Shown here piece by piece: positions 4,233 through 61,028 of a stretch of 64,000 bases of DNA. Below the pieces are notes generated by a model. That model was given only the letters and a program-made list of their open reading frames with translations, was not told the DNA's origin and did not search any database. Numbering within the stretch: position 1 is the first letter of the stretch; each line of letters begins with the position of its first letter. The DNA is from a virus. Both the position numbers and the translations under genes were made by a program. Where the stretch lies: UHGV virus genome UHGV-0086135; one strand, given 5' to 3'.

Positions 4233-4317
4233 CATACAAGTAATATAAATTCTATACTTAAGAAAAATAGATGATTCTAGGTCCTGTAAATTCATTAAAA
4301 ATTTTTTCACAAAACTA

Positions 4318-4346
4318 TTTACATCCCTGTTCTTCCGTGGTACTAT
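4318..4346 (+). promoter_or_regulatory. early sigma-70 promoter in stem-loop/promoter cassette (copy A)
   Basis: -35 TTTACA, 17 nt, extended -10 TGGTACTAT; follows gene 43 terminator. Confidence 0.6.
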
Positions 4347-4380
4347 ACAACTATCAACTGATACGGATTTGGAGAATAAA

Positions 4381-4638
4381 ATGAAAATTGTTTATGGTTG
4401 TTTAGCAGCGTGTTTAGTTGCATTAGCAGTTGTTCTAGTTGCATTAGCAGCTGTTCCATTTATTGATATTGAAAATGACACTCAGAATGTGATTGAATCT
4501 AATACTGTTATTCACATGAATGGTAAAGTATCAACAAAAATTGATGATAATCTTCATATGAATACTAATGGAACGCTTGGTGTTCAATTAGGTAATACCT
4601 GTGTAAGCACTACTGGAGTAATTACTACTTGTATTTGA
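4381..4638 (+). CDS. small secreted or membrane protein (N-terminal hydrophobic signal-like segment)
   Basis: ATG at 4381 with GGAG 6 nt upstream in the conserved cassette leader; ORF-track start 4369 is a TTG inside that leader. Confidence 0.5.
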   Translation: MKIVYGCLAACLVALAVVLVALAAVPFIDIENDTQNVIESNTVIHMNGKVSTKIDDNLHMNTNGTLGVQLGNTCVSTTGVITTCI

Positions 4639-4648
4639 GGAAATTATT

Positions 4649-5029
4649 ATGAAAATTGCTATTTTGGTTATTGCATTAGGTCTTACTGGCTGTGTAGCTC
4701 AAGGACCAGTAGTAAATCAGTCTGATGCAGGAAAAATTGTAAATTGTTCAAGCAAATTTTATAATCCTAATGTTAAGTGTTATAAAGAAGCTCCAAAACA
4801 GACAGTAGAACAAATGCAGGCGAATTTTGACGAAGCTATTCGTCCAGATGAATCTGCTCAAGCATATCGTAATTCAGATGTAATTACACGCGAAGAAAAA
4901 ATTGAAAACTACTGTGCTGAACTTTGGGCTAATTGGGCTAATAATTACCAATGGCGTACCGGTAAAAATGCTCCGATGGAGTATGTAGTGAATTCTTATA
5001 ATTCATGTGTAAAAAATTTGACTAAGTGA
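4649..5029 (+). CDS. putative lipoprotein
   Basis: N-terminus MKIAILVIALGLTGC has a signal peptide plus lipobox-like LTGC; 126 aa. Confidence 0.55.
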   Translation: MKIAILVIALGLTGCVAQGPVVNQSDAGKIVNCSSKFYNPNVKCYKEAPKQTVEQMQANFDEAIRPDESAQAYRNSDVITREEKIENYCAELWANWANNYQWRTGKNAPMEYVVNSYNSCVKNLTK

Positions 5030-23097: not shown

Positions 23098-23586
23098 ATG
23101 ATTATTAATATTGGTGAAATTGCTCGTGTATCTGATAAATCCCGTTCTAAAGCAGCAGGAAAATTGGTTGAAATTGTAAGCATTCAGCTTAAACACAGTG
23201 TTAAAGATGAAGATTCTGAAGTAAAAGTGCGTATCATTCCTAAAGATGGAAAGTCTAAACCCCAGTTTGGCTATGTTCGTGCGAAATTTCTTGAGTCTGC
23301 GTTTTTGAAAGCTGTTCCTGCTAAAGGAATTGAAACGATTGATACTTCGCATGTAGGCGTAGACTTTAAGTGGAAACTCGGTCAGGCTATTAAGTTCATT
23401 GCTCCCTGTGAATTTAAATTTATCAAAGATGATGGTGTGGCTGTTTATACTCGTGCTATGTGCGCATACATTACCGATCAGTGGGTAGAAGACGGTGTTA
23501 AGCTGTATAATGTGGTATTTTTAGGAACATACAAAGTCATTCCTGAAAGCTGGATTAAACATTACAGCAAAGCTCTCTATGCATAA
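23098..23586 (+). CDS. motB: MotB-like protein
   Basis: 162 aa; position after dexA as T4 motB; own early promoter; assignment by synteny and size. Confidence 0.5.
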   Translation: MIINIGEIARVSDKSRSKAAGKLVEIVSIQLKHSVKDEDSEVKVRIIPKDGKSKPQFGYVRAKFLESAFLKAVPAKGIETIDTSHVGVDFKWKLGQAIKFIAPCEFKFIKDDGVAVYTRAMCAYITDQWVEDGVKLYNVVFLGTYKVIPESWIKHYSKALYA

Positions 23587-23611
23587 AGTTTAAAATTTTT
23601 TCATAAAACTA

Positions 23612-23640
23612 TATACATCAGTAGTTGATTATGGTACTAT
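23612..23640 (+). promoter_or_regulatory. degenerate cassette promoter copy
   Basis: TATACA, 17 nt, TGGTACTAT; downstream leader resembles the 4.3 kb and 31.6 kb copies. Confidence 0.35.
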
Positions 23641-23758
23641 ATCAATATCAACTACTGATACAGAAAATAACTTGGAGAATAAAATGGAAAATTTGCCAAA
23701 GGTGCTGCCACTCTTCTGAAACGCATCGCTCCAATGTTCAATTAACGAGGAAATTGTA

Positions 23759-23974
23759 ATGAAACGTAAAATTGTTCAGAACTGCACTAATGACGAATTT
23801 GAAGATGTGTTATTCGATCCAGATTTGGTAGTAGTTCAAAAGGAACACACTGCTAAGTTTACTCACTTGACTTCGGTTTATGTGTATGAAAAGGTTGGGG
23901 ATAAACAACCAATTTACGGTGTATTTCGTGAAATCACTGAAGACGGTACAACTTACTGGAAGGAAATTTATTAA
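23759..23974 (+). CDS. hypothetical protein (cef position)
   Basis: 71 aa, position matches T4 cef; not verifiable from sequence. Confidence 0.4.
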
Positions 23975-27361: not shown

Positions 27362-29539
27362 ATGATTATCACCACTGAAAAAGAAACAATTCTTGGTAAT
27401 GGTTCTAAATCAAAAGCATTTAGCATCGCAGCAAATCCTAAAGTATTTAAAATTCTGTCATCTGATTTGTATACAAACAAGATTCGCGCAGTAGTCCGTG
27501 AATTGATTACCAACATGATTGACGCCCATGCTCTCAATGGAAATCATGAAAAATTTATCATTCAAGTTCCAGGACGATTAGATCCGCGATTTGTTTGCCG
27601 AGATTTTGGTCCGGGTATGAGCGATTTTGATATTCAAGGTGATGATAATTCTCCTGGGTTGTATAATTCATACTTTAGTTCATCTAAGGCTGAATCTAAC
27701 GATTTCATTGGTGGATTTGGTTTAGGTTCTAAATCTCCGTTTAGTTATACTGATACATTTAGTATTACTTCGTATCATAAAGGTGAAATTCGCGGTTATG
27801 TAGCTTACATGGATGGTGATGGTCCGCAAATTAAACCTACATTTGTAAAAGAAATGGGTCCAAATGATAAAACTGGTATTGAAATCGTAGTTCCAGTTGA
27901 AGAAAAAGACTTTAGAAACTTTGCTTATGAAGTTTCTTATATCATGCGACCATTCAAAGATTTAGCTATCATTAATGGTCTTGACCGCGAAATTGATTAT
28001 TTTCCGGATTTTGATGACTATTACGGCGTAAATCCAGAAAGATACTGGCCAGATCGTGGTGGATTGTATGCTATCTATGGTGGTATTGTTTATCCTATCG
28101 ATGGTGTTATTAGAGACCGTAACTGGTTAAGCATCCGCAATGAAGTGAATTACATTAAGTTTCCAATGGGTTCACTTGATATTGCTCCATCGCGTGAGGC
28201 TCTTTCACTGGATGATCGTACTCGTAAAAATATTATTGAGCGTGTTAAAGAGCTTAGTGAGAAGGCATTCAATGAAGATGTAAAACGATTTAAAGAATCT
28301 ACATCTCCTCGTCATACATACCGTGAATTGATGAAGATGGGATATTCTGCTCGAGATTATATGATTAGTAATTCAGTCAAATTTACGACTAAAAATCTTT
28401 CATATAAGAAGATGCAAAGCATGTTTGAACCTGACAGTAAGTTATGCAATGCAGGAGTTGTGTATGAAGTAAATCTTGACCCTCGACTGAAACGCATTAA
28501 GCAAAGTCATGAAACTTCAGCCGTTGCATCAAGTTATCGTCTATTTGGTATTAATACAACAAAAATTAATATTGTTATTGATAATATTAAAAATCGTGTT
28601 AATATTGTCCGTGGATTAGCGCATGCGTTAGATGATAGTGAATTTAATAACACCTTAAATATTCATCATAATGAGCGTCTTCTGTTTATTAATCCGGAAG
28701 TAGAATCGCAGATTGATTTACTCCCTGATATTATGGCAATGTTTGAAAGTGATGAAGTTAACATTCATTATTTGTCAGAAATTGAAGCTTTAGTTAAAAG
28801 TTATATTCCAAAGGCAGTAAAAAGTAAAGCTCCTCGTCCTAAAGCTGCTACTGCGTTTAAGTTTGAAATTAAAGACGGACGCTGGGAAAAAGAGGAACTG
28901 TTTACACTCACATCAGAAGCAGATGAAATTACTGGCTATGTAGCATATATGCATCGTTCTGATATTTTCTCTATGGATGGTACTACATCGCTTTGTCATC
29001 CATCTACGAGTATTTTGACTCGTATGGCTAATCTTATTGGCATTAATGAATTTTATGTTATTCGTCCGCTTTTGCAGAAAAAGGTAAAAGAACTTGGTCA
29101 GTGCCAATGTATTTTTGAAACTCTGCGTGATTTATATGTAGATGCTTTTGATGATGTAGATTATGATAAGTATGTAGGTTATTCAAGTTCAGCTAAACGA
29201 TATATTGATAAAATTATCAAGTATCCTGAGTTAGATTTTATGATGAAGTACTTCAGTGTAGATGAAGTTTCTGAAGAATATACACGACTCGCTAATATGG
29301 TTAGTTCATTACAGGGTGTATATTTCAACGGTGGAAAAGATACCATCGGTCATGACATCTGGACAGTAACTAATCTTTTTGATGTATTATCAAATAATGC
29401 TTCAAAAAACAGTGATAAAATGGTTGCTGAGTTTACCAAGAAATTCCGTATTGTTTCCGACTTCATCGGTTATCGCAACTCTTTAAGTGATGATGAAGTT
29501 TCCCAAATCGCTAAAACTATGAAGGCCCTTGCGGCCTAA
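27362..29539 (+). CDS. rIIA: rIIA protein
   Basis: 725 aa as T4 rIIA; N-terminal GHKL-like ATPase region; followed by rIIB. Confidence 0.9.
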
Positions 29540-29550
29540 TAAGGAAAATT

Positions 29551-30489
29551 ATGTACAATATTAAATGCCTGACCAAAAACGAACAAGCTGAAATTGTCAA
29601 ACTGTATTCAAGTGGTAATTACACCCAACAGGAATTGGCTGATTGGCAAGGTGTATCGGTTGACACAATCCGTCGTGTTTTGAAAAATGCTGAAGAAGCT
29701 GAACGCTCCAAAGTTACTATTAGCGGTGATATTACAGTTAAAGTTAATAGCGATGCAGTTATTGCTCCAGTTGCTAAATCTGACATTATTTGGAATGCAT
29801 CTAAAAAATTCATTTCAATTACTGTTGACGGTGTAACTTATAACGCAACTCCTAATACTCATTCAAACTTCCAGGAAATTCTTAATCTGCTTGTTACAGA
29901 TAAATTGGAAGAAGCGGCGCAAAAAATTAACGTTCGTCGCGCCGTTGAAAAATATATTTCCGGTGATGTTCGAATTGAAGGTGGAAGCTTGTTCTATCAA
30001 AATATTGAATTGCGATCTGGTTTAGTTGATCGTATTCTCGATTCGATGGAAAAAGGCGAAAACTTTGAATTTTATTTTCCGTTCTTGGAAAATCTGTTGG
30101 AAAACCCAAGCCAAAAAGCGGTATCTCGACTCTTTGATTTCTTGGTAGCAAACGATATTGAAATTACAGAAGATGGTTACTTCTATGCTTGGAAAGTAGT
30201 TCGCAGCAATTACTTTGACTGTCATTCAAATACTTTTGATAACAGTCCTGGTAAAGTAGTTAAAATGCCACGTACTCGTGTGAATGACGATGATACACAA
30301 ACTTGTTCTCGTGGTCTGCATGTGTGTTCTAAATCTTATATTCGTCACTTTGGCAGTTCAACCAGTCGAGTTGTAAAAGTTAAAGTACATCCTCGCGATG
30401 TAGTATCAATTCCGATTGATTACAATGATGCTAAAATGCGTACCTGCCAATACGAAGTAGTTGAAGACGTTACTGAACAATTTAAATAA
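29551..30489 (+). CDS. rIIB: rIIB protein
   Basis: 312 aa as T4 rIIB; classic AAGGAAAAUUAUG initiation region. Confidence 0.9.
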   Translation: MYNIKCLTKNEQAEIVKLYSSGNYTQQELADWQGVSVDTIRRVLKNAEEAERSKVTISGDITVKVNSDAVIAPVAKSDIIWNASKKFISITVDGVTYNATPNTHSNFQEILNLLVTDKLEEAAQKINVRRAVEKYISGDVRIEGGSLFYQNIELRSGLVDRILDSMEKGENFEFYFPFLENLLENPSQKAVSRLFDFLVANDIEITEDGYFYAWKVVRSNYFDCHSNTFDNSPGKVVKMPRTRVNDDDTQTCSRGLHVCSKSYIRHFGSSTSRVVKVKVHPRDVVSIPIDYNDAKMRTCQYEVVEDVTEQFK

Positions 30490-30506
30490 GGGCTTCGGCC
30501 CTTAAC
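30490..30506 (+). terminator. hairpin after rIIB
   Basis: GGGC-UUCG-GCCC; weak U tract. Confidence 0.45.
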
Positions 30507-30517
30507 TAAGGAAAATT

Positions 30518-30712
30518 ATGCTAGGTTATCAAGCACGAGTAAAAGAAGAATACGATCAATTAATGCTCAAAATTAATGCACTGAGCAAATTTTTAGAAAG
30601 CACAAAGTTTCTAACGATTAATGAAGTTGAGCAAGAATTACTGCTTTCACAATTCATCTCAATGAAATCTTACGCAGATTGTTTAGAAAAAAGAATTGCA
30701 CAATTCAAATAA
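30518..30712 (+). CDS. hypothetical protein (64 aa) bracketed by two GGGCUUCGGCCC hairpins
   Basis: ORF with AAGGAAAA SD. Confidence 0.4.
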   Translation: MLGYQARVKEEYDQLMLKINALSKFLESTKFLTINEVEQELLLSQFISMKSYADCLEKRIAQFK

Positions 30713-30717
30713 AATAA

Positions 30718-30739
30718 GGGGCTTCGGCCCTTTTGTTTT
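30718..30739 (+). terminator. intrinsic terminator
   Basis: GGGGC-UUCG-GCCC hairpin plus UUUUGUUUU. Confidence 0.6.
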
Positions 30740-30750
30740 AAGGAAAAATT

Positions 30751-31080
30751 ATGATTTATTGTATGAATATCGGTGATTCCGACATAAAAGAGATTAAACT
30801 GCACGGAAATCATCACGCTAATATTGTGTACTGCAATAAATTTGAGTTTGGTCACGAAAAACTTGGGTTTCTTTACTGCAATGATATTATAGTCATGGAT
30901 AAAAAGGAACTCGATGAACTTGACCGTGAGTCTTTAGATGAAAATGACCGAATTTATTACGGCACTCTTAAAGTATATAACGCTTATCTCAGCGGTAAAA
31001 AGGAAAGTCTAAATGCAGAAAACGAATCCGGGTTTACAGAGACTATTTCAGATTCCGACATTTACCCTATCGAACAGTGA
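30751..31080 (+). CDS. hypothetical protein (109 aa)
   Basis: ORF with AAGGAAAAA SD. Confidence 0.45.
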   Translation: MIYCMNIGDSDIKEIKLHGNHHANIVYCNKFEFGHEKLGFLYCNDIIVMDKKELDELDRESLDENDRIYYGTLKVYNAYLSGKKESLNAENESGFTETISDSDIYPIEQ

Positions 31081-31570
31081 CTTGACTAGTGAAATGAAGG
31101 TCAAAATTGCTGATACAGCAAGATACTCTTTAAAACAAAACCCGAACCAGGATAAAGCAGAAGTTATCGAAAGATGTCGTATCGCGGTGTACGCAGAGTT
31201 TTTTGTAGCAGATTGGCTAAGCGGGTATGTTAACAAAGGCCAAGAGGATGTTAATGACCCGTATACATACGCATGGGATGTATTGGCGCATCCAAGATAC
31301 TGCGGGCTTCGTGTAGAAGTTAAGACACATCAAACTGACTCGCGTTGGATTTCGGTAACAACAGGATGCAGCGGAGAGTATCCATACGGTTCTGGAATAA
31401 ATCTAGGGCCCATTCTGAATCATCAGGTCGCTGACTGTATAATTATATTCAACACTAAAGAAATTCATCCAGGTGTCATCCAGTACACTCCGAAGTTCAT
31501 CGGTGATAGAGAAGACCTTCGTAAGGTTGTAAGAAAAAGCAACTACAACGGATGGTATCTTTCCATTTAA
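31013..31570 (+). CDS. denB: possible endonuclease IV DenB
   Basis: 185 aa, same length as T4 DenB, located between rIIB and ndd; AAGGAAAG SD before ATG 31013; overlaps upstream ORF by 68 nt. Confidence 0.45.
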   Translation: MQKTNPGLQRLFQIPTFTLSNSDLTSEMKVKIADTARYSLKQNPNQDKAEVIERCRIAVYAEFFVADWLSGYVNKGQEDVNDPYTYAWDVLAHPRYCGLRVEVKTHQTDSRWISVTTGCSGEYPYGSGINLGPILNHQVADCIIIFNTKEIHPGVIQYTPKFIGDREDLRKVVRKSNYNGWYLSI

Positions 31571-31587
31571 AAATTTTCACAAAACGG

Positions 31588-31616
31588 TTTACATATCACA
31601 AGGACTGTGGTACTAT
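31588..31616 (+). promoter_or_regulatory. early promoter in cassette (copy B)
   Basis: -35 TTTACA, 17 nt, TGGTACTAT; leader identical to copy A over 43 nt. Confidence 0.65.
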
Positions 31617-31650
31617 ACAACTATCAACTGATACGGATTTGGAGAATAAA

Positions 31651-31857
31651 ATGTTTACTACGGCTGAATTAAAACGAGCAAAAGCTAAGAAAGGGCAAGG
31701 AAAATATAAAGCTGAATTAGTTAAAGAACTTCAGTTTGCTGAGGCTGAATTGAATTCGATGATTATTCAAAATGCTCCAGAAACTGAAATTGCTCTTAAA
31801 CGTATTGCGAATAAATGTCTTCGTGATACAATCGTCGATCTTTTAGCGGATTATTGA
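31651..31857 (+). CDS. hypothetical protein (68 aa)
   Basis: ATG 31651 preceded by the conserved cassette leader; ORF-track start 31552 lies upstream of the promoter. Confidence 0.5.
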   Translation: MFTTAELKRAKAKKGQGKYKAELVKELQFAEAELNSMIIQNAPETEIALKRIANKCLRDTIVDLLADY

Positions 31858-32126
31858 GTAAAATGAAATTTAAATTTTATTGCGCTAAACATAAAATAAC
31901 TGATGAGTTTGTGTCAGTTGAATATTCTAGCGATGATGAAGGCATGATTTATACTCGTTTGGGATTATCACACTGGGAGTCTGATACGCCTTATTTTTCA
32001 ACTCCCGAAGAAATTACACGCTTAGTTAATGGTCATATGAATGACCACTGGGATGTAATTCTTTCAGATAGTCTTAAAGCGGCTATTAATAGTAATGAAA
32101 TGAAAATCGCTGAGATTGAACTATGA
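31854..32126 (+). CDS. hypothetical protein (90 aa)
   Basis: ATGA overlap with upstream ORF. Confidence 0.45.
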   Translation: MSKMKFKFYCAKHKITDEFVSVEYSSDDEGMIYTRLGLSHWESDTPYFSTPEEITRLVNGHMNDHWDVILSDSLKAAINSNEMKIAEIEL

Positions 32127-32304: not shown

Positions 32305-32312
32305 AAAAGTTG

Positions 32313-32342
32313 TTTACAAGACTGTTCCTCTGTGGTACTATA
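32313..32342 (+). promoter_or_regulatory. early promoter in cassette
   Basis: -35 GTTTACA, 18 nt, TGGTACTAT. Confidence 0.6.
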
Positions 32343-32369
32343 CAACTATCAACTACGGAGGAACAGAAA

Positions 32370-32483
32370 ATGAAAAAGATTGTTAAAGCTATATGGAATG
32401 TAGTTATAATACTAGTAGTTTTGAGTATATTCCCAATCGTTTTAATGATTGATGTATTAAACGCTTACTTTGGATTTATGTGA
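32370..32483 (+). CDS. tiny hydrophobic peptide (37 aa)
   Basis: ATG 32370 with GGAGGA SD behind early promoter; single TM helix. Confidence 0.4.
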   Translation: MKKIVKAIWNVVIILVVLSIFPIVLMIDVLNAYFGFM

Positions 32484-35393: not shown

Positions 35394-35398
35394 TTTTA

Positions 35399-35424
35399 GG
35401 GAGAGCCGAGGCTCTCCCTTTTTT
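35399..35424 (+). terminator. intrinsic terminator after gene 52 region
   Basis: GGGAGAGC-CGAG-GCUCUCCC hairpin plus U6. Confidence 0.75.
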
Positions 35425-35451
35425 ATTTCAAAAATTTTTTTCACAAAACGG

Positions 35452-35480
35452 TTTACAACCAAAGCATACTGTGGTACTAT
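35452..35480 (+). promoter_or_regulatory. early promoter in cassette (copy D)
   Basis: -35 TTTACA, 17 nt, TGGTACTAT; preceded by terminator hairpin. Confidence 0.65.
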
Positions 35481-35529
35481 ACAACTATCAAATAAATGAA
35501 CTGAAACAAACAACCCGGAGATACAAAAA

Positions 35530-35757
35530 ATGAAATTTAAAATCGAAAACGAAATCGTTAAAGCTAAAAATGCTCTGACTGCTAACAAACTGGTTGTAGA
35601 TGGTATTGAATATGATATCTGTGGAGTTCGTGAAGAAAAACCTGGTGTTCTGACTTTCTTCACAATGATTTTTAAATTTAAAGGTGACACAGAATTCAAA
35701 CAGTTTGATTTTGCCCATGAAGACGAAATCGAAGTTCGTAATCTGAACATTAAGTAA
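35530..35757 (+). CDS. hypothetical protein (75 aa)
   Basis: ORF behind cassette promoter, GGAG SD. Confidence 0.5.
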   Translation: MKFKIENEIVKAKNALTANKLVVDGIEYDICGVREEKPGVLTFFTMIFKFKGDTEFKQFDFAHEDEIEVRNLNIK

Positions 35758-35796
35758 GTACTTTATTAGAGCTCTTGAAAAAGAGTGCAAAAAAGT

Positions 35797-35825
35797 GTTT
35801 ACTTCTGCTTTAAACATGATACTAT
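35797..35825 (+). promoter_or_regulatory. early promoter upstream of motA (copy E)
   Basis: -35 GTTTAC, 17 nt, -10 TACTAT; leader shares CTATCAAATAAATGAACTGAAAC with copy D. Confidence 0.6.
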
Positions 35826-35862
35826 AGACCTATCAAATAAATGAACTGAAACGGAGATTAAA

Positions 35863-36498
35863 ATGTCTAAAGTAACTTACATCATCAAAGCTTCTAACGA
35901 TGTTCTGAATGAAAAAACTGCTGCGATTTTAATTACCATTGCTAAGAAAGATTTCATTACAGCTGCAGAAGTTCGTGAGGTGCATCCAGATTTAGGTAAC
36001 GCAGTAGTTAATAGTAATATTGGGGTATTGATTAAAAAAGGTCTGGTAGAGAAATCTGGTGATGGATTAATCATTACAGGAGAAGCTCAGGATATTATTT
36101 CAAATGCAGCAACTTTATATGCACAGGAAAATGCTCCTGAACTACTGAAAAAACGAGCAACTCGTAAAGCTCGTGAGATTACTTCCGATATGGAAGAAGA
36201 TAAAGACCTTATGCTAAAACTTTTAGATGAAAATGGATTTGTTCTTAAAAAGGTTGAAACTTACCGCAGTAACTATCTTGCTATTTTAGAAAAACGCACT
36301 CATGGAATTCGCAATTTTGAAATTAATAACAATGGAAATATGCGAATTTTTGGATACAAAATGATGGAACATCATATTCAGAAATTTACTGATATCGGAA
36401 TGTCATGTAAAATCGCTAAAAACGGTAATGTGTATCTTGACATTAAACGCTCGGCAGAAAACATTGAAGCGGTAATCACCGCAGCATCTGAACTGTGA
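35863..36498 (+). CDS. motA: middle-transcription activator MotA
   Basis: 211 aa as T4 MotA; position next to gene 52; own early promoter. Confidence 0.75.
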   Translation: MSKVTYIIKASNDVLNEKTAAILITIAKKDFITAAEVREVHPDLGNAVVNSNIGVLIKKGLVEKSGDGLIITGEAQDIISNAATLYAQENAPELLKKRATRKAREITSDMEEDKDLMLKLLDENGFVLKKVETYRSNYLAILEKRTHGIRNFEINNNGNMRIFGYKMMEHHIQKFTDIGMSCKIAKNGNVYLDIKRSAENIEAVITAASEL

Positions 36499-44886: not shown

Positions 44887-47800
44887 TTATTCAATCCACT
44901 CAAATTTAACAGTTTTATTCACTGGGTCAGGAATAATGCGAACATTACCAATTCGTAAGAAATCACGAATAGTAAGATTACCTATTATTCCATTATCAGA
45001 TGGAATTGCTCCTATATCCGAAGGTTGAGGAGGGTTACCTCCATCAAATACCTGAACAAAACTTGACCAAGAGTTTTTAGTTTTTTGCCATGTACGTGTC
45101 CAGCGAGTGGTACGTGCTTCTGGAGTCGTTGGATAAGTAATCCAATCTTGGTAAAGTGAATCAAGTGTGTTACCAAACTGAGTCAATGTACCAGGAGATT
45201 TAACTTCTTCGCCACGTTCTAAGTATGGAAGTCCAGTCACTTCATTAGTTTTTTCAACCATTTTAAAATAACCCGGGAACTGGTTATAAGTGGCTGAATC
45301 ATTAATATCGATTGACCAGAATCCTACAGTATCAGATGTTGGCGCACGGGTATATAAATCAGGTGTTTTAACACCTTGAGAACGAATTCTCGAGTTAACA
45401 GTTAAACCACCTGAATTTATAGTAGCACCTTTAGCAATGATCAAGCTTTCACCAATCGTTACTTGACCGGACTGATTATTAATTGATAATGGACGTAATG
45501 CATTAAATCCACCAGTTTGGTCACCGGCTGCAGTGAGCATAAAATAGGTGTCATTACCAGCGTTACGAATAAAGAATCCGTAATTTCCATTTATCGCTCT
45601 AAAAGCATTTGGCGATTTACCGATAAATTCACCATTGGCTGTAACTGAATTACCAAATGTTGCAACGCCATTCGCATTCAATGTTCCTGAAGCATTCACA
45701 TTTATCGGTGTTACTGTACCGTTGATATTAAATGTTATATTACCAGCTTTATTACGCTGAGAATAAAAATGACTAGACGTTTCATCACTAACTTCAAATA
45801 CGGTAGAACGTGTTGTATCTGATTCCCCACTAAATTGATTTCCCCACACTTTGACAGTCATCGTCTGCGCTGGGTTCGTTCCAGTTTGAGGTCCTTTCTC
45901 AAAAATCAATTGAGTTGCTGTTCCAGTATTAGAAATAGTTAGTGTACTATTTGCTGAAACTGATCCACCAAATGTAGCAGTACTAGATGATACAAGAGGG
46001 GCACTCAGGTTCGTTTGTTTGGTTAAGGTTAGTGAACCATTAACTGTCTGGGCAATATCCCTACGAATGAACTGAGATGAATCTAGACCATCTAATAAAT
46101 TTGCGTCAGCAGCTTTTGCTTTTAACGGCAAATAATTTGCTAATACACGGTTTAATTCATATGGTGATACTGCATAGCTATTTTTCTCGTATAATTCTAA
46201 TGACTGTGTTGAACCAACTGTATCATTACCAACGAATGTAATTGAACCAGATGAAGTTTTAACAAAACCTCTTACCAAAGTAGTTGCTGCCCAAGTAGGT
46301 TCACTCTGCACAATCCATTTTAAATTTTTTGGAGATACAGCAGTATTTGCTGACGTTCCAGTCACGGTTTCAGACTGAGTTGCAACTTTAATAACGCCTT
46401 CTTGTGCTTCAGTAGATTTAGTACCTAAAAGCTTTTTAGGAGTTATCAAAACGTTATCTAATTTTCCTGCAGCAGCTTCAACTTGTGTAGCTACACGAAG
46501 TGTACCACGTTGTGTCTCATTTGCTTCAAGAATATTAAGGGTATAATGGTCCCAGAGAGTTCCTGATTCAACTAATCCAGATAGAGCAACAACAGAAGTA
46601 CGATTAGTACTATCAAATCTAGTTTTAATTTTTAATGGTGTAGAGATACGAGTATCGTCGACGCCTGCGTCGAATTCAACTTGTGTAGCAATTTCAGCTA
46701 TACCACTTAAACTTTCAGTTGCTTTACGGTCATTTAAAGTTTTAGGAGTGACTGCACGAGTATAATCAGTTCCTGTATTAACTTCACTTTGCGTAGCAAT
46801 TTCAATTAAACCAATTCTTCCATCAGTTGATGTCTTTTTATGTAACGTTTCTGGTGTTACAACCGCATTTGCCCATCCTTCTTGGCTTTGTCCAGCAATT
46901 ACTTCACTTTCAACTGCTAAAATTACTGCACCTTGTTGCGTTGGAGTAGCTTTATACTGATCCAAAGCTTTAGGCGAAACAACTAAATTATTAGTATTTT
47001 TATTATAAACATTTGTACCATTTAATTCACGACTAGAGGCTGGAGTAGCTCCTGCGGTAGATACAAAAGTTACAATACCCGATAATGTTTCAGAACCTTG
47101 ACGAGCTTGAAGCTTTTTAGGAGTGATGATTGTAGTATCATCAGTACCTGTATTAGTTTCCTGCTGCGTAGCAATTTCAGCGACACCTCTACGAGTTTCT
47201 GTAGCAGTTCTTTCATTCAGCTTTTTAGGAGTGATGATAAGGTCATCAGCAAAAGAGAATGTAGTGTTCTGATTTACTTGAGCAGTAGTTGCTATTCTTG
47301 CGATACCTCTACGAGTTTCTGTAGCAGTACGGTTAGCTAATGTTTCTGGAGTAATTGCTAATTCTTTTTGTGGAGAATTTTCTAAATCGACGTTAGCTTG
47401 AGCTTGTGTAGCTAAAGCAATTACGCCTAATCTTGCTCTAGTAGAATTATTTAAAGAATCGACTCTTTCAACTGTTGGAACGTTTTGCTGTACAACCCAG
47501 TATTTTCCGTCAGAATCTTCTATATAAGCAAGTTGTAAAACTGGAACATAATTAGTTTCACCGTTAAAAACTAATTCTTGAACAGTCACCCATTCAGCTT
47601 CAGGTGGATATTCTGAGCGTTTTGGGAATTGCAGCAATTGAACTGAAGAAGCAATTTTATCTTCACCGGCAGCTTTGATTTTAACTGTTTGTCCTTTTCT
47701 CATGTAATTCATGGAAATTTTAACAGTATCACCAACAGAAATATTAGTTGGAAGCTGAAGCTCAATTGTTTGAGTTGTTCCGTTATTCGCACCAAATACC

Positions 47801-52050: not shown

Positions 52051-52075
52051 GGGGACCCTAGAGGTCCCCTTTTTT
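52051..52075 (+). terminator. intrinsic terminator after gene 32
   Basis: GGGGACC-CUAGA-GGUCCCC hairpin plus U6. Confidence 0.75.
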
Positions 52076-52101
52076 ATTTCAAAAATTTTTTCACAAAACG
52101 G

Positions 52102-52130
52102 TTTACATACCACAAGGACTGTGGTACTAT
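52102..52130 (+). promoter_or_regulatory. early promoter in cassette (copy C)
   Basis: -35 TTTACA, 17 nt, TGGTACTAT; upstream half near-identical to copy B. Confidence 0.65.
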
Positions 52131-52173
52131 ACAACTATCAGCAATACTGCTGATGATTAAAGAGGAAAATAAT

Positions 52174-52401
52174 ATGGCTAAAGTTGATATTGACATCGTT
52201 GATTTTGAATATATTGAAGAAATTATTCGTAATCGTTATCCTGAACTTAGTATCACAAGCGTGCAAGATTCTAAGTTTTGGAGTATTCAAATCGTTATTG
52301 AAGGTCCTCTTGAAGACCTCACCCGCTTTATGGCTAATGAATATTGTGATGGCATGGATTCTGAAGACGCAGAATTTTACATGGGACTGATTGAACAATA
52401 A
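52174..52401 (+). CDS. hypothetical acidic protein (75 aa)
   Basis: ATG 52174 with AGAGGA SD behind cassette promoter. Confidence 0.5.
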
Positions 52402-52445: not shown

Positions 52446-52826
52446 ATGTATACTGGTAGAAAATATGAACTTGTTCCAAGACTTATTGATACATTTATTA
52501 ATTATAGCCCACGTTCCAATTCATCAATAGTTAAAGCTATTCGAGATAATGGCGGATGGTTTGAAGTTAAAGAAGTTTCCGTCGCCAATGGATACAAAGC
52601 AGTAAAACACATTGAATGCGCAAATGGAAAGCATTTTTATCTCAAAGATAGACTTTTAGAAATTTGCGAAGACGAATTTCATTGTTTCCGCGAGTATAAA
52701 GAACCAACTTCTGAAGAAGATGAAGTCAAAGACAAGGTTTCTGGCGTAACAAAAATTCACTGCATTGTTGACAAAAACAATGCAGATGAAATCATTGAAC
52801 TTTTGCGAAAAACTTTCAAAAAGTAG
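52446..52826 (+). CDS. hypothetical protein (126 aa)
   Basis: ORF with GAGGA SD. Confidence 0.5.
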   Translation: MYTGRKYELVPRLIDTFINYSPRSNSSIVKAIRDNGGWFEVKEVSVANGYKAVKHIECANGKHFYLKDRLLEICEDEFHCFREYKEPTSEEDEVKDKVSGVTKIHCIVDKNNADEIIELLRKTFKK

Positions 52827-52855
52827 TTTACAGTAGGGTAGTAGTGTGATACTAT
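52826..52855 (+). promoter_or_regulatory. early promoter
   Basis: -35 GTTTAC, 18 nt, -10 TACTAT. Confidence 0.55.
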
Positions 52856-52880
52856 TACCCTATCAACTAAGGAGAATAAA

Positions 52881-53123
52881 ATGAGATTACAACGTCAGAG
52901 TATTAAAGATTCAGAAGTTAGAGGTAAATGGTATTTTAATATCATCGGTAAAGATTCTGAACCTGTTGAAAAAGCTGAACATCTTTTACGCGGCATGGGA
53001 TGGGAAGATGAATGTGATGGATGCCCTCTTTATGAGGATGGAGAAAGCGCAGGATTCTGGATTTACCATTCTGATGTTGAACAGTTTAAAGCTGATTGGA
53101 AAATTGTGAAAAAGTCTGTTTGA
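52881..53123 (+). CDS. hypothetical protein (80 aa)
   Basis: Behind early promoter, GGAG SD. Confidence 0.5.
   Translation: MRLQRQSIKDSEVRGKWYFNIIGKDSEPVEKAEHLLRGMGWEDECDGCPLYEDGESAGFWIYHSDVEQFKADWKIVKKSV

Positions 53124-59440: not shown

Positions 59441-61028
<1,588 letters not shown>

Follow-up and report, generated by a model that had tools for sequence, protein, structure and literature searches.

A segment of 83 nt at positions 31571–31653 of the window, as the whole analysed stretch of 64,000 nt of viral DNA is called here, raises the question of how the same promoter and leader blocks came to stand, in different combinations, in front of unrelated genes. The original prediction described the segment as one of several stem-loop/early-promoter/leader cassettes and regarded this copy, at 31.6 kb, as a recombinant of the copies at 52.1 kb and 4.3 kb. 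The anatomy of the flagged copy, the other members of the family in the window, and their blocks and cargo genes in 12 genomes are described below, and the possible origins of the mosaic are compared.

Identity of the phage and gene map

The 2-kb stretches at about 31–33 kb and at 3.6–5.6 kb matched more than 500 Tequatrovirus records at 90–99% identity, among them T4, RB14, RB32, ime09 and vB_SsoM_113. By these matches, the window is a Tequatrovirus of the T4/RB32-like type, with 96–99% identity to many records. The gene map was obtained by transfer of the annotation from vB_SsoM_113 and T4, and the gene order is the reverse of the T4 convention. The map contains the 3′ end of gene 43, followed by an 85-aa ORF (4381–4638) and imm.1 (4649–5029); motB and cef at about 23.6–24 kb; rIIA (27362–29539), rIIB (29551–30489) and denB (31013–31570); after denB, RB32ORF266c (31651–31857), ORF-X (31863–32126), ndd.6, ndd.5 and ndd.4; gene 52, motA.1, a 75-aa ORF (35530–35757) and motA (from 35863); and gene 32, frd.3 (52174–52401), frd.2 and frd.1. 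Cassettes lie at the orthologous sites 43/imm.1, motB/cef, denB/ndd.6, ndd.5/ndd.4, motA.1/motA, 32/frd.3 and frd.2/frd.1. A separate region of the map, 46379–47355, contains four to five imperfect direct repeats of 42–68 nt that are 62–74% identical; they map to the long-tail-fibre gene 34 of the closest annotated relative and are probably an internal coding repeat.

Anatomy of the cassette downstream of denB

The 43 nt from the −10 element to the start codon, which had been reported to be identical at 4341–4383 and 31611–31653, were indeed found as an exact pattern only at these two sites, and the pattern did not occur in any of 100 dinucleotide shuffles. The identity extends to 47 nt (4337–4383 and 31607–31653). 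The sequence TTTTCACAAAACGGTTTACATA occurs exactly at 31574 and 52088 and with two to three mismatches at 35438 and 4304, while the chance expectation is 0. The proposed division of the flagged copy into two halves of different affinity was also borne out. With the 52.1 kb copy, 14 of 15 spacer positions and all 19 positions of the −10 box agree, and only 7 of the 27 leader positions. With the 4.3 kb copy, the leader (27/27) and the box (19/19) are identical, and the spacer agrees at only 5 of 15 positions.

The flagged copy begins immediately 3′ of the denB stop codon (31568–31570), and its elements are all on the plus strand. An A/T tract, the UP-element-like TTTTCACAAAACG and the −35 element GTTTAC (31587–31592) together occupy positions 31571–31592. 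The whole A/T-rich, UP-element-like tract upstream of the −35 element, TTTAAAAATTTTCACAAAACG (31567–31586), is kept in all 12 genomes compared below. The −35 element is followed by the 15-nt spacer S3 (ATATCACAAGGACTG, 31593–31607), the counterpart of which in the 52.1 kb copy is located at 52107–52121 (14/15). Next is the extended −10/start-site box TGGTACTATACAACTATCA (31608–31626), which includes a TGn motif (TGG) and the −10 element TACTAT (31611–31616), and these 19 nt are identical (19/19) in five copies of the window. The start of transcription is predicted near 31622–31623, about 7 nt past the −10 element. The module ends with leader L1 (ACTGATACGGATTTGGAGAATAAAATG, 31627–31653), which contains the Shine-Dalgarno motif GGAG (31641–31644) and the ATG (31651–31653).

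The features of T4-type early promoters are thus all present, i.e., GTTTAC, a spacing of about 17 nt, TGn, and a −10 element of the form TAnnnT, and a generic promoter scanner returned TTTACA, 17 nt and TACTAT, with TG, at this site. The Shine-Dalgarno motif and the start codon of the downstream ORF, which make up the 3′ end of such modules, are also found, with GGAG 6 nt ahead of the ATG in a leader of about 24–30 nt that has a conserved ACAACTATCA start region. The same site is labelled “predicted early promoter” in a related record, and promoter features are absent from both the GenBank and the RefSeq record of T4. In T4, nearly the same promoter and leader are found 3′ of denB (167,0xx, denB/ndd.6) and before imm.1 (27,0xx, 43/imm.1). 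The flagged site is orthologous to a T4 site before early genes, and it is oriented with early transcription. As T4 has both promoter-leader sites, the pairing of the leaders at 4.3 kb and 31.6 kb is old and is not peculiar to the window genome.

A possible small hairpin in the leader, UAUCA-ACUAC-UGAUA, can be formed by positions 31622–31640 and by the T4 equivalents, with a predicted stability of only −0.9 to −2.7 kcal/mol. A 3-nt ACT indel that separates the window from T4 is located in its loop. In addition, a 101-aa ORF (31552–31857) begins within the end of denB, crosses the whole promoter and is in frame with ORF266c, and this long form is annotated as a CDS in the relative ESh33. It is likely that the true start of ORF266c is the ATG close to the Shine-Dalgarno motif, at 31651.

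Other members of the cassette family

All seven regions for which a cassette had been proposed contain a member of the family, and an eighth member, between frd.2 and frd.1, had been missed. The eight copies lie in hyperplastic early regions, every one of them on the early-gene strand, which is the plus strand of the window. At 43/imm.1 (4291–4383), the promoter consists of ATTTAC, the spacer ATCCCTGTTCTTCCG, the box and leader L1, and it is followed by the 85-aa ORF (4381–4638; phrog_4189) and then by imm.1. The copy at 23.6 kb, which had been described as degenerate, was recovered between motB and cef (23585–23686), with ATATAC as the −35 element and the box TGGTACTATATCAATATCA. The promoter at ndd.5/ndd.4 is located together with its leader at 32305–32372. 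The copies at 31.6 kb and 32.3 kb share a 25-nt direct repeat (31605–31629 and 32330–32354) that brackets 266c, X, ndd.6 and ndd.5.

Two promoters precede motA. Downstream of motA.1, a terminator hairpin (35398–35419), an early promoter and a leader occupy positions 35398–35532, and this promoter is predicted to drive the 75-aa ORF (35530–35757; phrog_10955). The second promoter, with its own leader, is located directly before motA (35776–35865). A stretch of 36 nt in the second copy (35817–35852) is a direct repeat, with 92% identity, of 35472–35507 in the first, and this pair brackets the 75-aa ORF. The region 52051–52176 comprises the terminator hairpin of gene 32 (52051–52069), the frd.3 early promoter with spacer S3, and the frd.3 leader; the frd.3 product has a match to the Pfam family Phage_FRD3. 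The eighth copy, at frd.2/frd.1 (52800–52883), has the box TGATACTATTACCCTATCA and a short GGAGAATAAAATG leader.

The original prediction held that each cassette drives a small ORF of unknown function. This did not apply to the 35.8 kb copy, which precedes motA, or to the 4.3 kb copy, which heads the imm.1-imm-42 unit, and the part that stood is that the cargo ORFs belong to phage families of unknown function.

Several further observations were made at or near these loci. The promoter at 23.6 kb precedes only an 11-codon remnant ORF (MENLPKVLPLF, within 23684–23760) and then cef, and T4 has the same arrangement. An 89-aa ORF (MENLIIIE...) is located between motB and cef in six of the other genomes, and the difference is an internal, frame-shifting deletion of 208 nt. 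At 52826–53123, the promoter after frd.2 leads straight to frd.1 via the GGAGAATAAAATG leader, whereas T4 has the same promoter with another leader and a small unannotated ORF (MFAPYIMA...) ahead of frd.1. The frd.2 allele of the window is strongly diverged from frd.2 of T4. A middle-promoter-like site with a MotA box (ATGCTT) is found at 59848–59880, and its spacer CCACATGGAGTG and TGGTACTAT resemble S3 and the early-cassette box, respectively. A pattern scan of IMG/VR for the L1 leader returned 5 loci only, too few for pairing. At two of them, L004 and L005 on T4-like contigs, the L1 leader ACTGATACGGATTTGGAGAATAAAATG is found behind a terminator and S5, with a cargo ORF that begins MKTVTINKG....

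Stem-loops

The designation as stem-loop/early-promoter/leader cassettes proved to be right for the promoter and the leader, and the stem-loop could not be recovered for the flagged copy or for those at 23.6 kb and 32.3 kb. At the flagged copy, neither a terminator-like match nor a hairpin abutting the promoter was found, and the sole predicted fold nearby lies within the coding end of denB (z = −1.66, not significant). For the copies at 23.6 kb, 31.6 kb and 32.3 kb, folding was not above the shuffled expectation. A terminator-type hairpin that abuts the promoter is present only at 35.4 kb (35398–35419, z = −4.05) and at 52.1 kb, where it is the terminator of gene 32; the hairpin at 4.2 kb is located about 75 nt upstream of its promoter. 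Apart from the cassettes, the window contains three terminator hairpins of the GGGGCTTCGGCCCC type with a UUCG loop (1418–1443, 30479–30504 and 30708–30733), two of which bracket denB.1, downstream of rIIB.

Variation of the cassette blocks in 12 genomes

The cassettes were compared at 7 loci in 12 genomes, i.e., the window, ten further Tequatroviruses (about 50 kb each, from gene 43 to frd) and pieces of T4. They were tabulated per locus and per block, and the direction of events (insertion or deletion, donor or recipient) was assigned by parsimony over the 12 genomes. The cassette positions are orthologous in all 12 genomes; the blocks are not. Downstream of denB, spacer S3 is found in all genomes and leader L1 in 10, both of them also in T4, and the S3 + L1 combination of the 31.6 kb copy likewise occurs in 10 of the 12, T4 included.

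The 32/frd.3 locus has three unrelated spacers among the 12 genomes. Three genomes, those of the window, vB_SsoM_113 and LF73P3, are alone in having S3 (ATACCACAAGGACTG) there; in vB_SsoM_113 and LF73P3 the denB spacer has exactly this sequence, and in the window the denB spacer is one base off (14/15). S5 (AAGCATAAAGCTTT(A/G)) is found in T4 and ECO07P1, and vB_SsoM_113, LF73P3 and KK4 have the same or nearly the same sequence as their motA.1 spacer. The remaining seven genomes have an S1-like spacer (ATCCTTGTCCTTCCA) that resembles the spacer at gene 43. With a 65-nt probe, S3 at frd.3 was found in about 8–15% of about 525 database records, which suggests that it is a minority state.

Other loci showed exchanges of other blocks. 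The −10 box of ndd.4 is ACAACTATCA in the window, vB_SsoM_113 and JoYop, and T-TAYCCTATCA, the sequence that the frd.1 promoter has as its box, in the nine other genomes; the two states differ by 4–5 clustered bases. Before motA, eight genomes have one promoter (S4 with leader L5), and three have S5, leader L3, the 75-aa ORF and a second promoter. The combination of S4 with L3 is found in the window alone, and to produce it a crossover must have taken place within the −10 box. The spacers at gene 43 are of an ATCCC... type and an AAGAC... type, and the latter matches the ndd.4 spacer.

The original prediction had named invariance of cassettes and cargo across related phages as the finding that would speak against it. 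The opposite was observed, as blocks and cargo vary and breakpoints lie inside the cassettes in the 12 genomes. This variation supports the proposed resemblance to the modules that have been suggested to shuffle accessory genes in T4-type phages.

The two L1 leaders may also have influenced one another. The ACT indel is concordant between them in 9 of 10 genomes (ESh33 is discordant), with p of about 0.07 before phylogeny is taken into account; the indel sits in a slippage-prone ACTACT repeat and is confounded by phylogeny, so that the indication of concerted evolution of the two leaders is weak. The sharing of GGAGAGTAAAATG by both L1 copies of SHFML-26 is suggestive, and a scar of the ORF266c deletion followed by conversion, or two A>G changes, are alternative explanations.

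Cargo ORFs and their loss

The flagged cassette is followed on the plus strand by two cargo ORFs. The RB32ORF266c-type ORF of 68 aa (31651–31857; phrog_4535) is annotated in a relative and is present in 6 of the 12 genomes; ORF-X has 87 aa (31863–32126; phrog_2390). For the cargo ORFs, no Pfam match was obtained except for Phage_FRD3, and the matching PHROGs are of unknown function.

Five cargo states were found between denB and ndd.6 among the 12 genomes. The window and three others contain 266c and X (758 nt); JoYop and ESh33 contain 266c and an 8-codon remnant, MKIVEIEL; SHFML-26, KK4 and PYPS2T contain X alone; JEP6 and BCH953P4 have another leader, followed by a diverged allele of X; and T4 has retained only the remnant MKIAEIEL (312 nt). 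The remnant, MKIAEIEL or MKIVEIEL, corresponds to the final eight codons of ORF-X (32099–32126 in the window) and forms a tiny ORF straight after the leader in genomes that lack X. This shows that X was lost by a deletion from its own ATGAAA start to a second ATGAAA inside the ORF. Where genomes with 266c differ from those that lack it, (A/G)TAAAATG repeats mark the limits of the difference. Some cargo ORFs were lost simply by internal deletion or by deletion at micro-homologies, for which a second cassette is not needed.

Two cargo states each were observed at 43/imm.1 and at motA.1/motA. In six genomes, imm.1 comes directly after the leader at gene 43, and the other six have an extra ORF in this place; the extra CDS is annotated in ESh33. 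The extents of matches to the denB cassette were taken from evenly spaced rows of 541 records. In this sample, about 22% of the matches continue into 266c, about 27% end at the ATG, and about 43% extend only some 3 nt beyond the −10 box, to +8, which is close to the predicted transcription start.

Origin of the mosaic

The feature is very probably an early promoter of the T-even type with a translation-initiation leader joined to it, and one of about eight paralogous copies in the window. From the biology of T4, it is expected that the sigma-70 RNA polymerase of the host would recognise the A/T-rich tract, GTTTAC, TGn and TACTAT, and that transcription would begin about 7 nt downstream of the −10 element, right after infection. 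The leader would provide the GGAG Shine-Dalgarno motif from which translation of a small early gene starts at its ATG. This motif also belongs to the motif class that is cut by the T4 endoribonuclease RegB, and, following the RegB literature covered in PMC2988021, cleavage may occur here as well. The near-invariant blocks, i.e., TTTTCACAAAAC-GTTTAC, the 19-nt −10 box and GGAGAATAAAATG, would act as portable homology that is used by the very active recombination and replication machinery of the phage. Two outcomes are visible in the comparison. One is the copying of a short stretch, be it the 15-nt spacer, the −10 box or the leader, from one promoter to another; the other is the loss, gain or replacement of accessory ORFs, with ends that lie in the leader or at the start codon. 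By parsimony, the window copy downstream of denB has retained the majority combination S3 + L1 and both cargo ORFs, which were lost in T4; the frd.3 promoter has taken over the denB spacer and the ndd.4 promoter the ACAACTATCA box; and the 75-aa ORF before motA was joined via a crossover inside the −10 box.

In the original prediction, the 31.6 kb cassette was instead a recent recombinant, with its upstream half from 52.1 kb (frd.3) and its downstream half from 4.3 kb (imm.1). The block pattern within the window alone fits this view (14/15 for the spacer and 27/27 for the leader), but the comparison of the 12 genomes contradicts it. S3 and L1 are already found at denB in 12 of 12 and 10 of 12 genomes, and frd.3 is the polymorphic locus, with three spacer families and with S3 only in the close relatives of the window. 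As S3 is present at denB in every genome, the common upstream half reflects a change at the frd.3 copy and not at 31.6 kb. Moreover, the S3 at frd.3 of the window is of the “ACTG” subtype, the one that the clade of the window has at denB. A recent recombinant origin of the 31.6 kb copy is thus extremely improbable, and, by parsimony, it is the gene 32/frd.3 promoter that acquired S3, in a minority lineage. It is also very improbable that the likeness of the copies is due only to selection for strong early promoters and efficient ribosome binding, with no exchange of DNA. In T4 early promoters, conservation reaches far past the −35 and −10 hexamers (PMC2988021), and the invariant blocks (UP, GTTTAC, TGG-TACTAT and GGAG) are functional elements, as selection would predict. 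However, the common stretches include parts without consensus value, namely the 15-nt spacers and the leader bodies. These are identical between loci and yet exchanged as a whole within one locus among close relatives, the chance of a 15-nt identity is about 1e-9 per pair, and the break-points of the cargo coincide with block edges. On this sequence evidence, identical 15-nt spacers that occur across loci and are replaced wholesale within a locus are not explicable by promoter optimisation alone.

A further explanation would be that the cassettes are true mobile elements, i.e., PeSL mini-circles whose excision and re-integration depend on a dedicated activity, which may be site-specific. Mini-circles with −10-to-ATG junctions have been detected, by inverse PCR, only in infections with RB49 and phi1 (PMC2839356), and in the window a 25-nt and a 36-nt direct repeat of cassette sequence each bracket a module. 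Nevertheless, this explanation is quite improbable. The cassettes have no associated recombinase, the leader of T4 motA is not a simple excision product of the two-promoter arrangement in the window, and the junctions are heterogeneous, being located inside the box, at the ATG, at 7–10-nt repeats and inside ORFs. Such heterogeneous junctions fit general or micro-homology recombination. Exchange between promoters by homology, the explanation favoured here, has a more far-reaching version, in which the Tequatrovirus early promoters form a genome-wide exchange network below the level of whole cassettes, the swaps are selected, and the leader-ATG junction serves as an integron-like docking point for new ORFs. 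Each of the three sub-modules (spacer, −10/start box and leader) would then be hot-swappable, by short-patch conversion between distant loci (tens of kb) with the invariant −35 block and the −10 box as homology arms. This version is unlikely to be correct as a whole; if it were, the swaps would be favoured because they retune the promoter strength, the Alt/ModA responsiveness or the RegB sensitivity of whole early operons.

Relation to known systems and biological significance

PeSL modules have been defined as an A/T tract, an early promoter, a stem-loop, a Shine-Dalgarno motif and an ATG; the same study showed indels adjoining the modules, as well as mini-circles in which the crossover had taken place between −10 and ATG (Arbiol et al. 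2010, PMC2839356). The model was later extended to the T4/PST pair, with the consensus TTTACW-N17-TAYWAT and with “half” PeSLs, and an exchange at the ndd locus, the same locus as that of the flagged copy, is depicted there (Comeau et al. 2014, Fig. 6A, PMC4122927). The window modules are likewise repeated, clustered in hyperplastic early regions, and located next to indels or replacements between close relatives; they conform to the TTTACW-N17-TAYWAT consensus, and crossovers lie between −10 and ATG. They differ from PeSLs in that the flagged copy and those at 23.6 kb and 32.3 kb are without a stem-loop, that sub-promoter patches (the 15-nt spacer and the −10 box) move between loci in the Tequatroviruses compared, and that several cargo losses are micro-homology or internal deletions and not cassette-to-cassette excisions. 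Having no stem-loop, the flagged copy is a promoter-only “half” member under the published PeSL definition.

For T4 early promoters, GTTTAC has been placed at −36 to −31 (Nolan et al. 2006, PMC1524935), and an architecture of UP, −35, TGn and −10 elements with further conserved positions has been described (Hinton 2010, PMC2988021). The window copy has the UP-like tract, GTTTAC, TGn, TAnnnT and the further conserved positions, and it differs in nothing essential; its leader is 3 nt shorter, and the downstream cargo is different. Elements at the internal-protein (IP) loci of T-even phages, as reported in PMC2839356 and PMC4122927 from Repoila et al. 1994, are also based on T4 early promoters, bracket variable small genes and are thought to mediate shuffling; in these secondary accounts, their loci are not those of the window cassettes. 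Lambdoid morons and integron cassettes are similarly small accessory genes with their own expression signals at recurrent positions. In contrast, morons originate from hosts and have a deviating G+C content (a contrast discussed in PMC1524935), and integrons have a dedicated integrase and attC sites, to which nothing in the window is comparable.

Taken together, the repeat family of the window is an instance of the published PeSL/early-promoter shuffling, which has already been described, including for this locus. As the phenomenon is published, the finding adds detail and not a new principle. The added detail consists of the donor/recipient direction of the window mosaic, the patch exchange, and the deletions that need no second cassette. 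In the consulted parts of the PeSL papers, exchange is treated at the level of cassettes, and sub-promoter patch exchange and its functional consequence are absent from that account.

The break-points in the leader or at the ATG are of help for annotation, as the 101-aa ORF can be recognised as an over-extended call and the 8- to 11-codon remnants as scars. The cassettes explain how a stable T4-like core genome can exist beside fast-changing sets of small early “takeover” genes. Many of the small early genes probably have anti-host or anti-defence functions, and the cassette sites show where to look for new cargo in related genomes.
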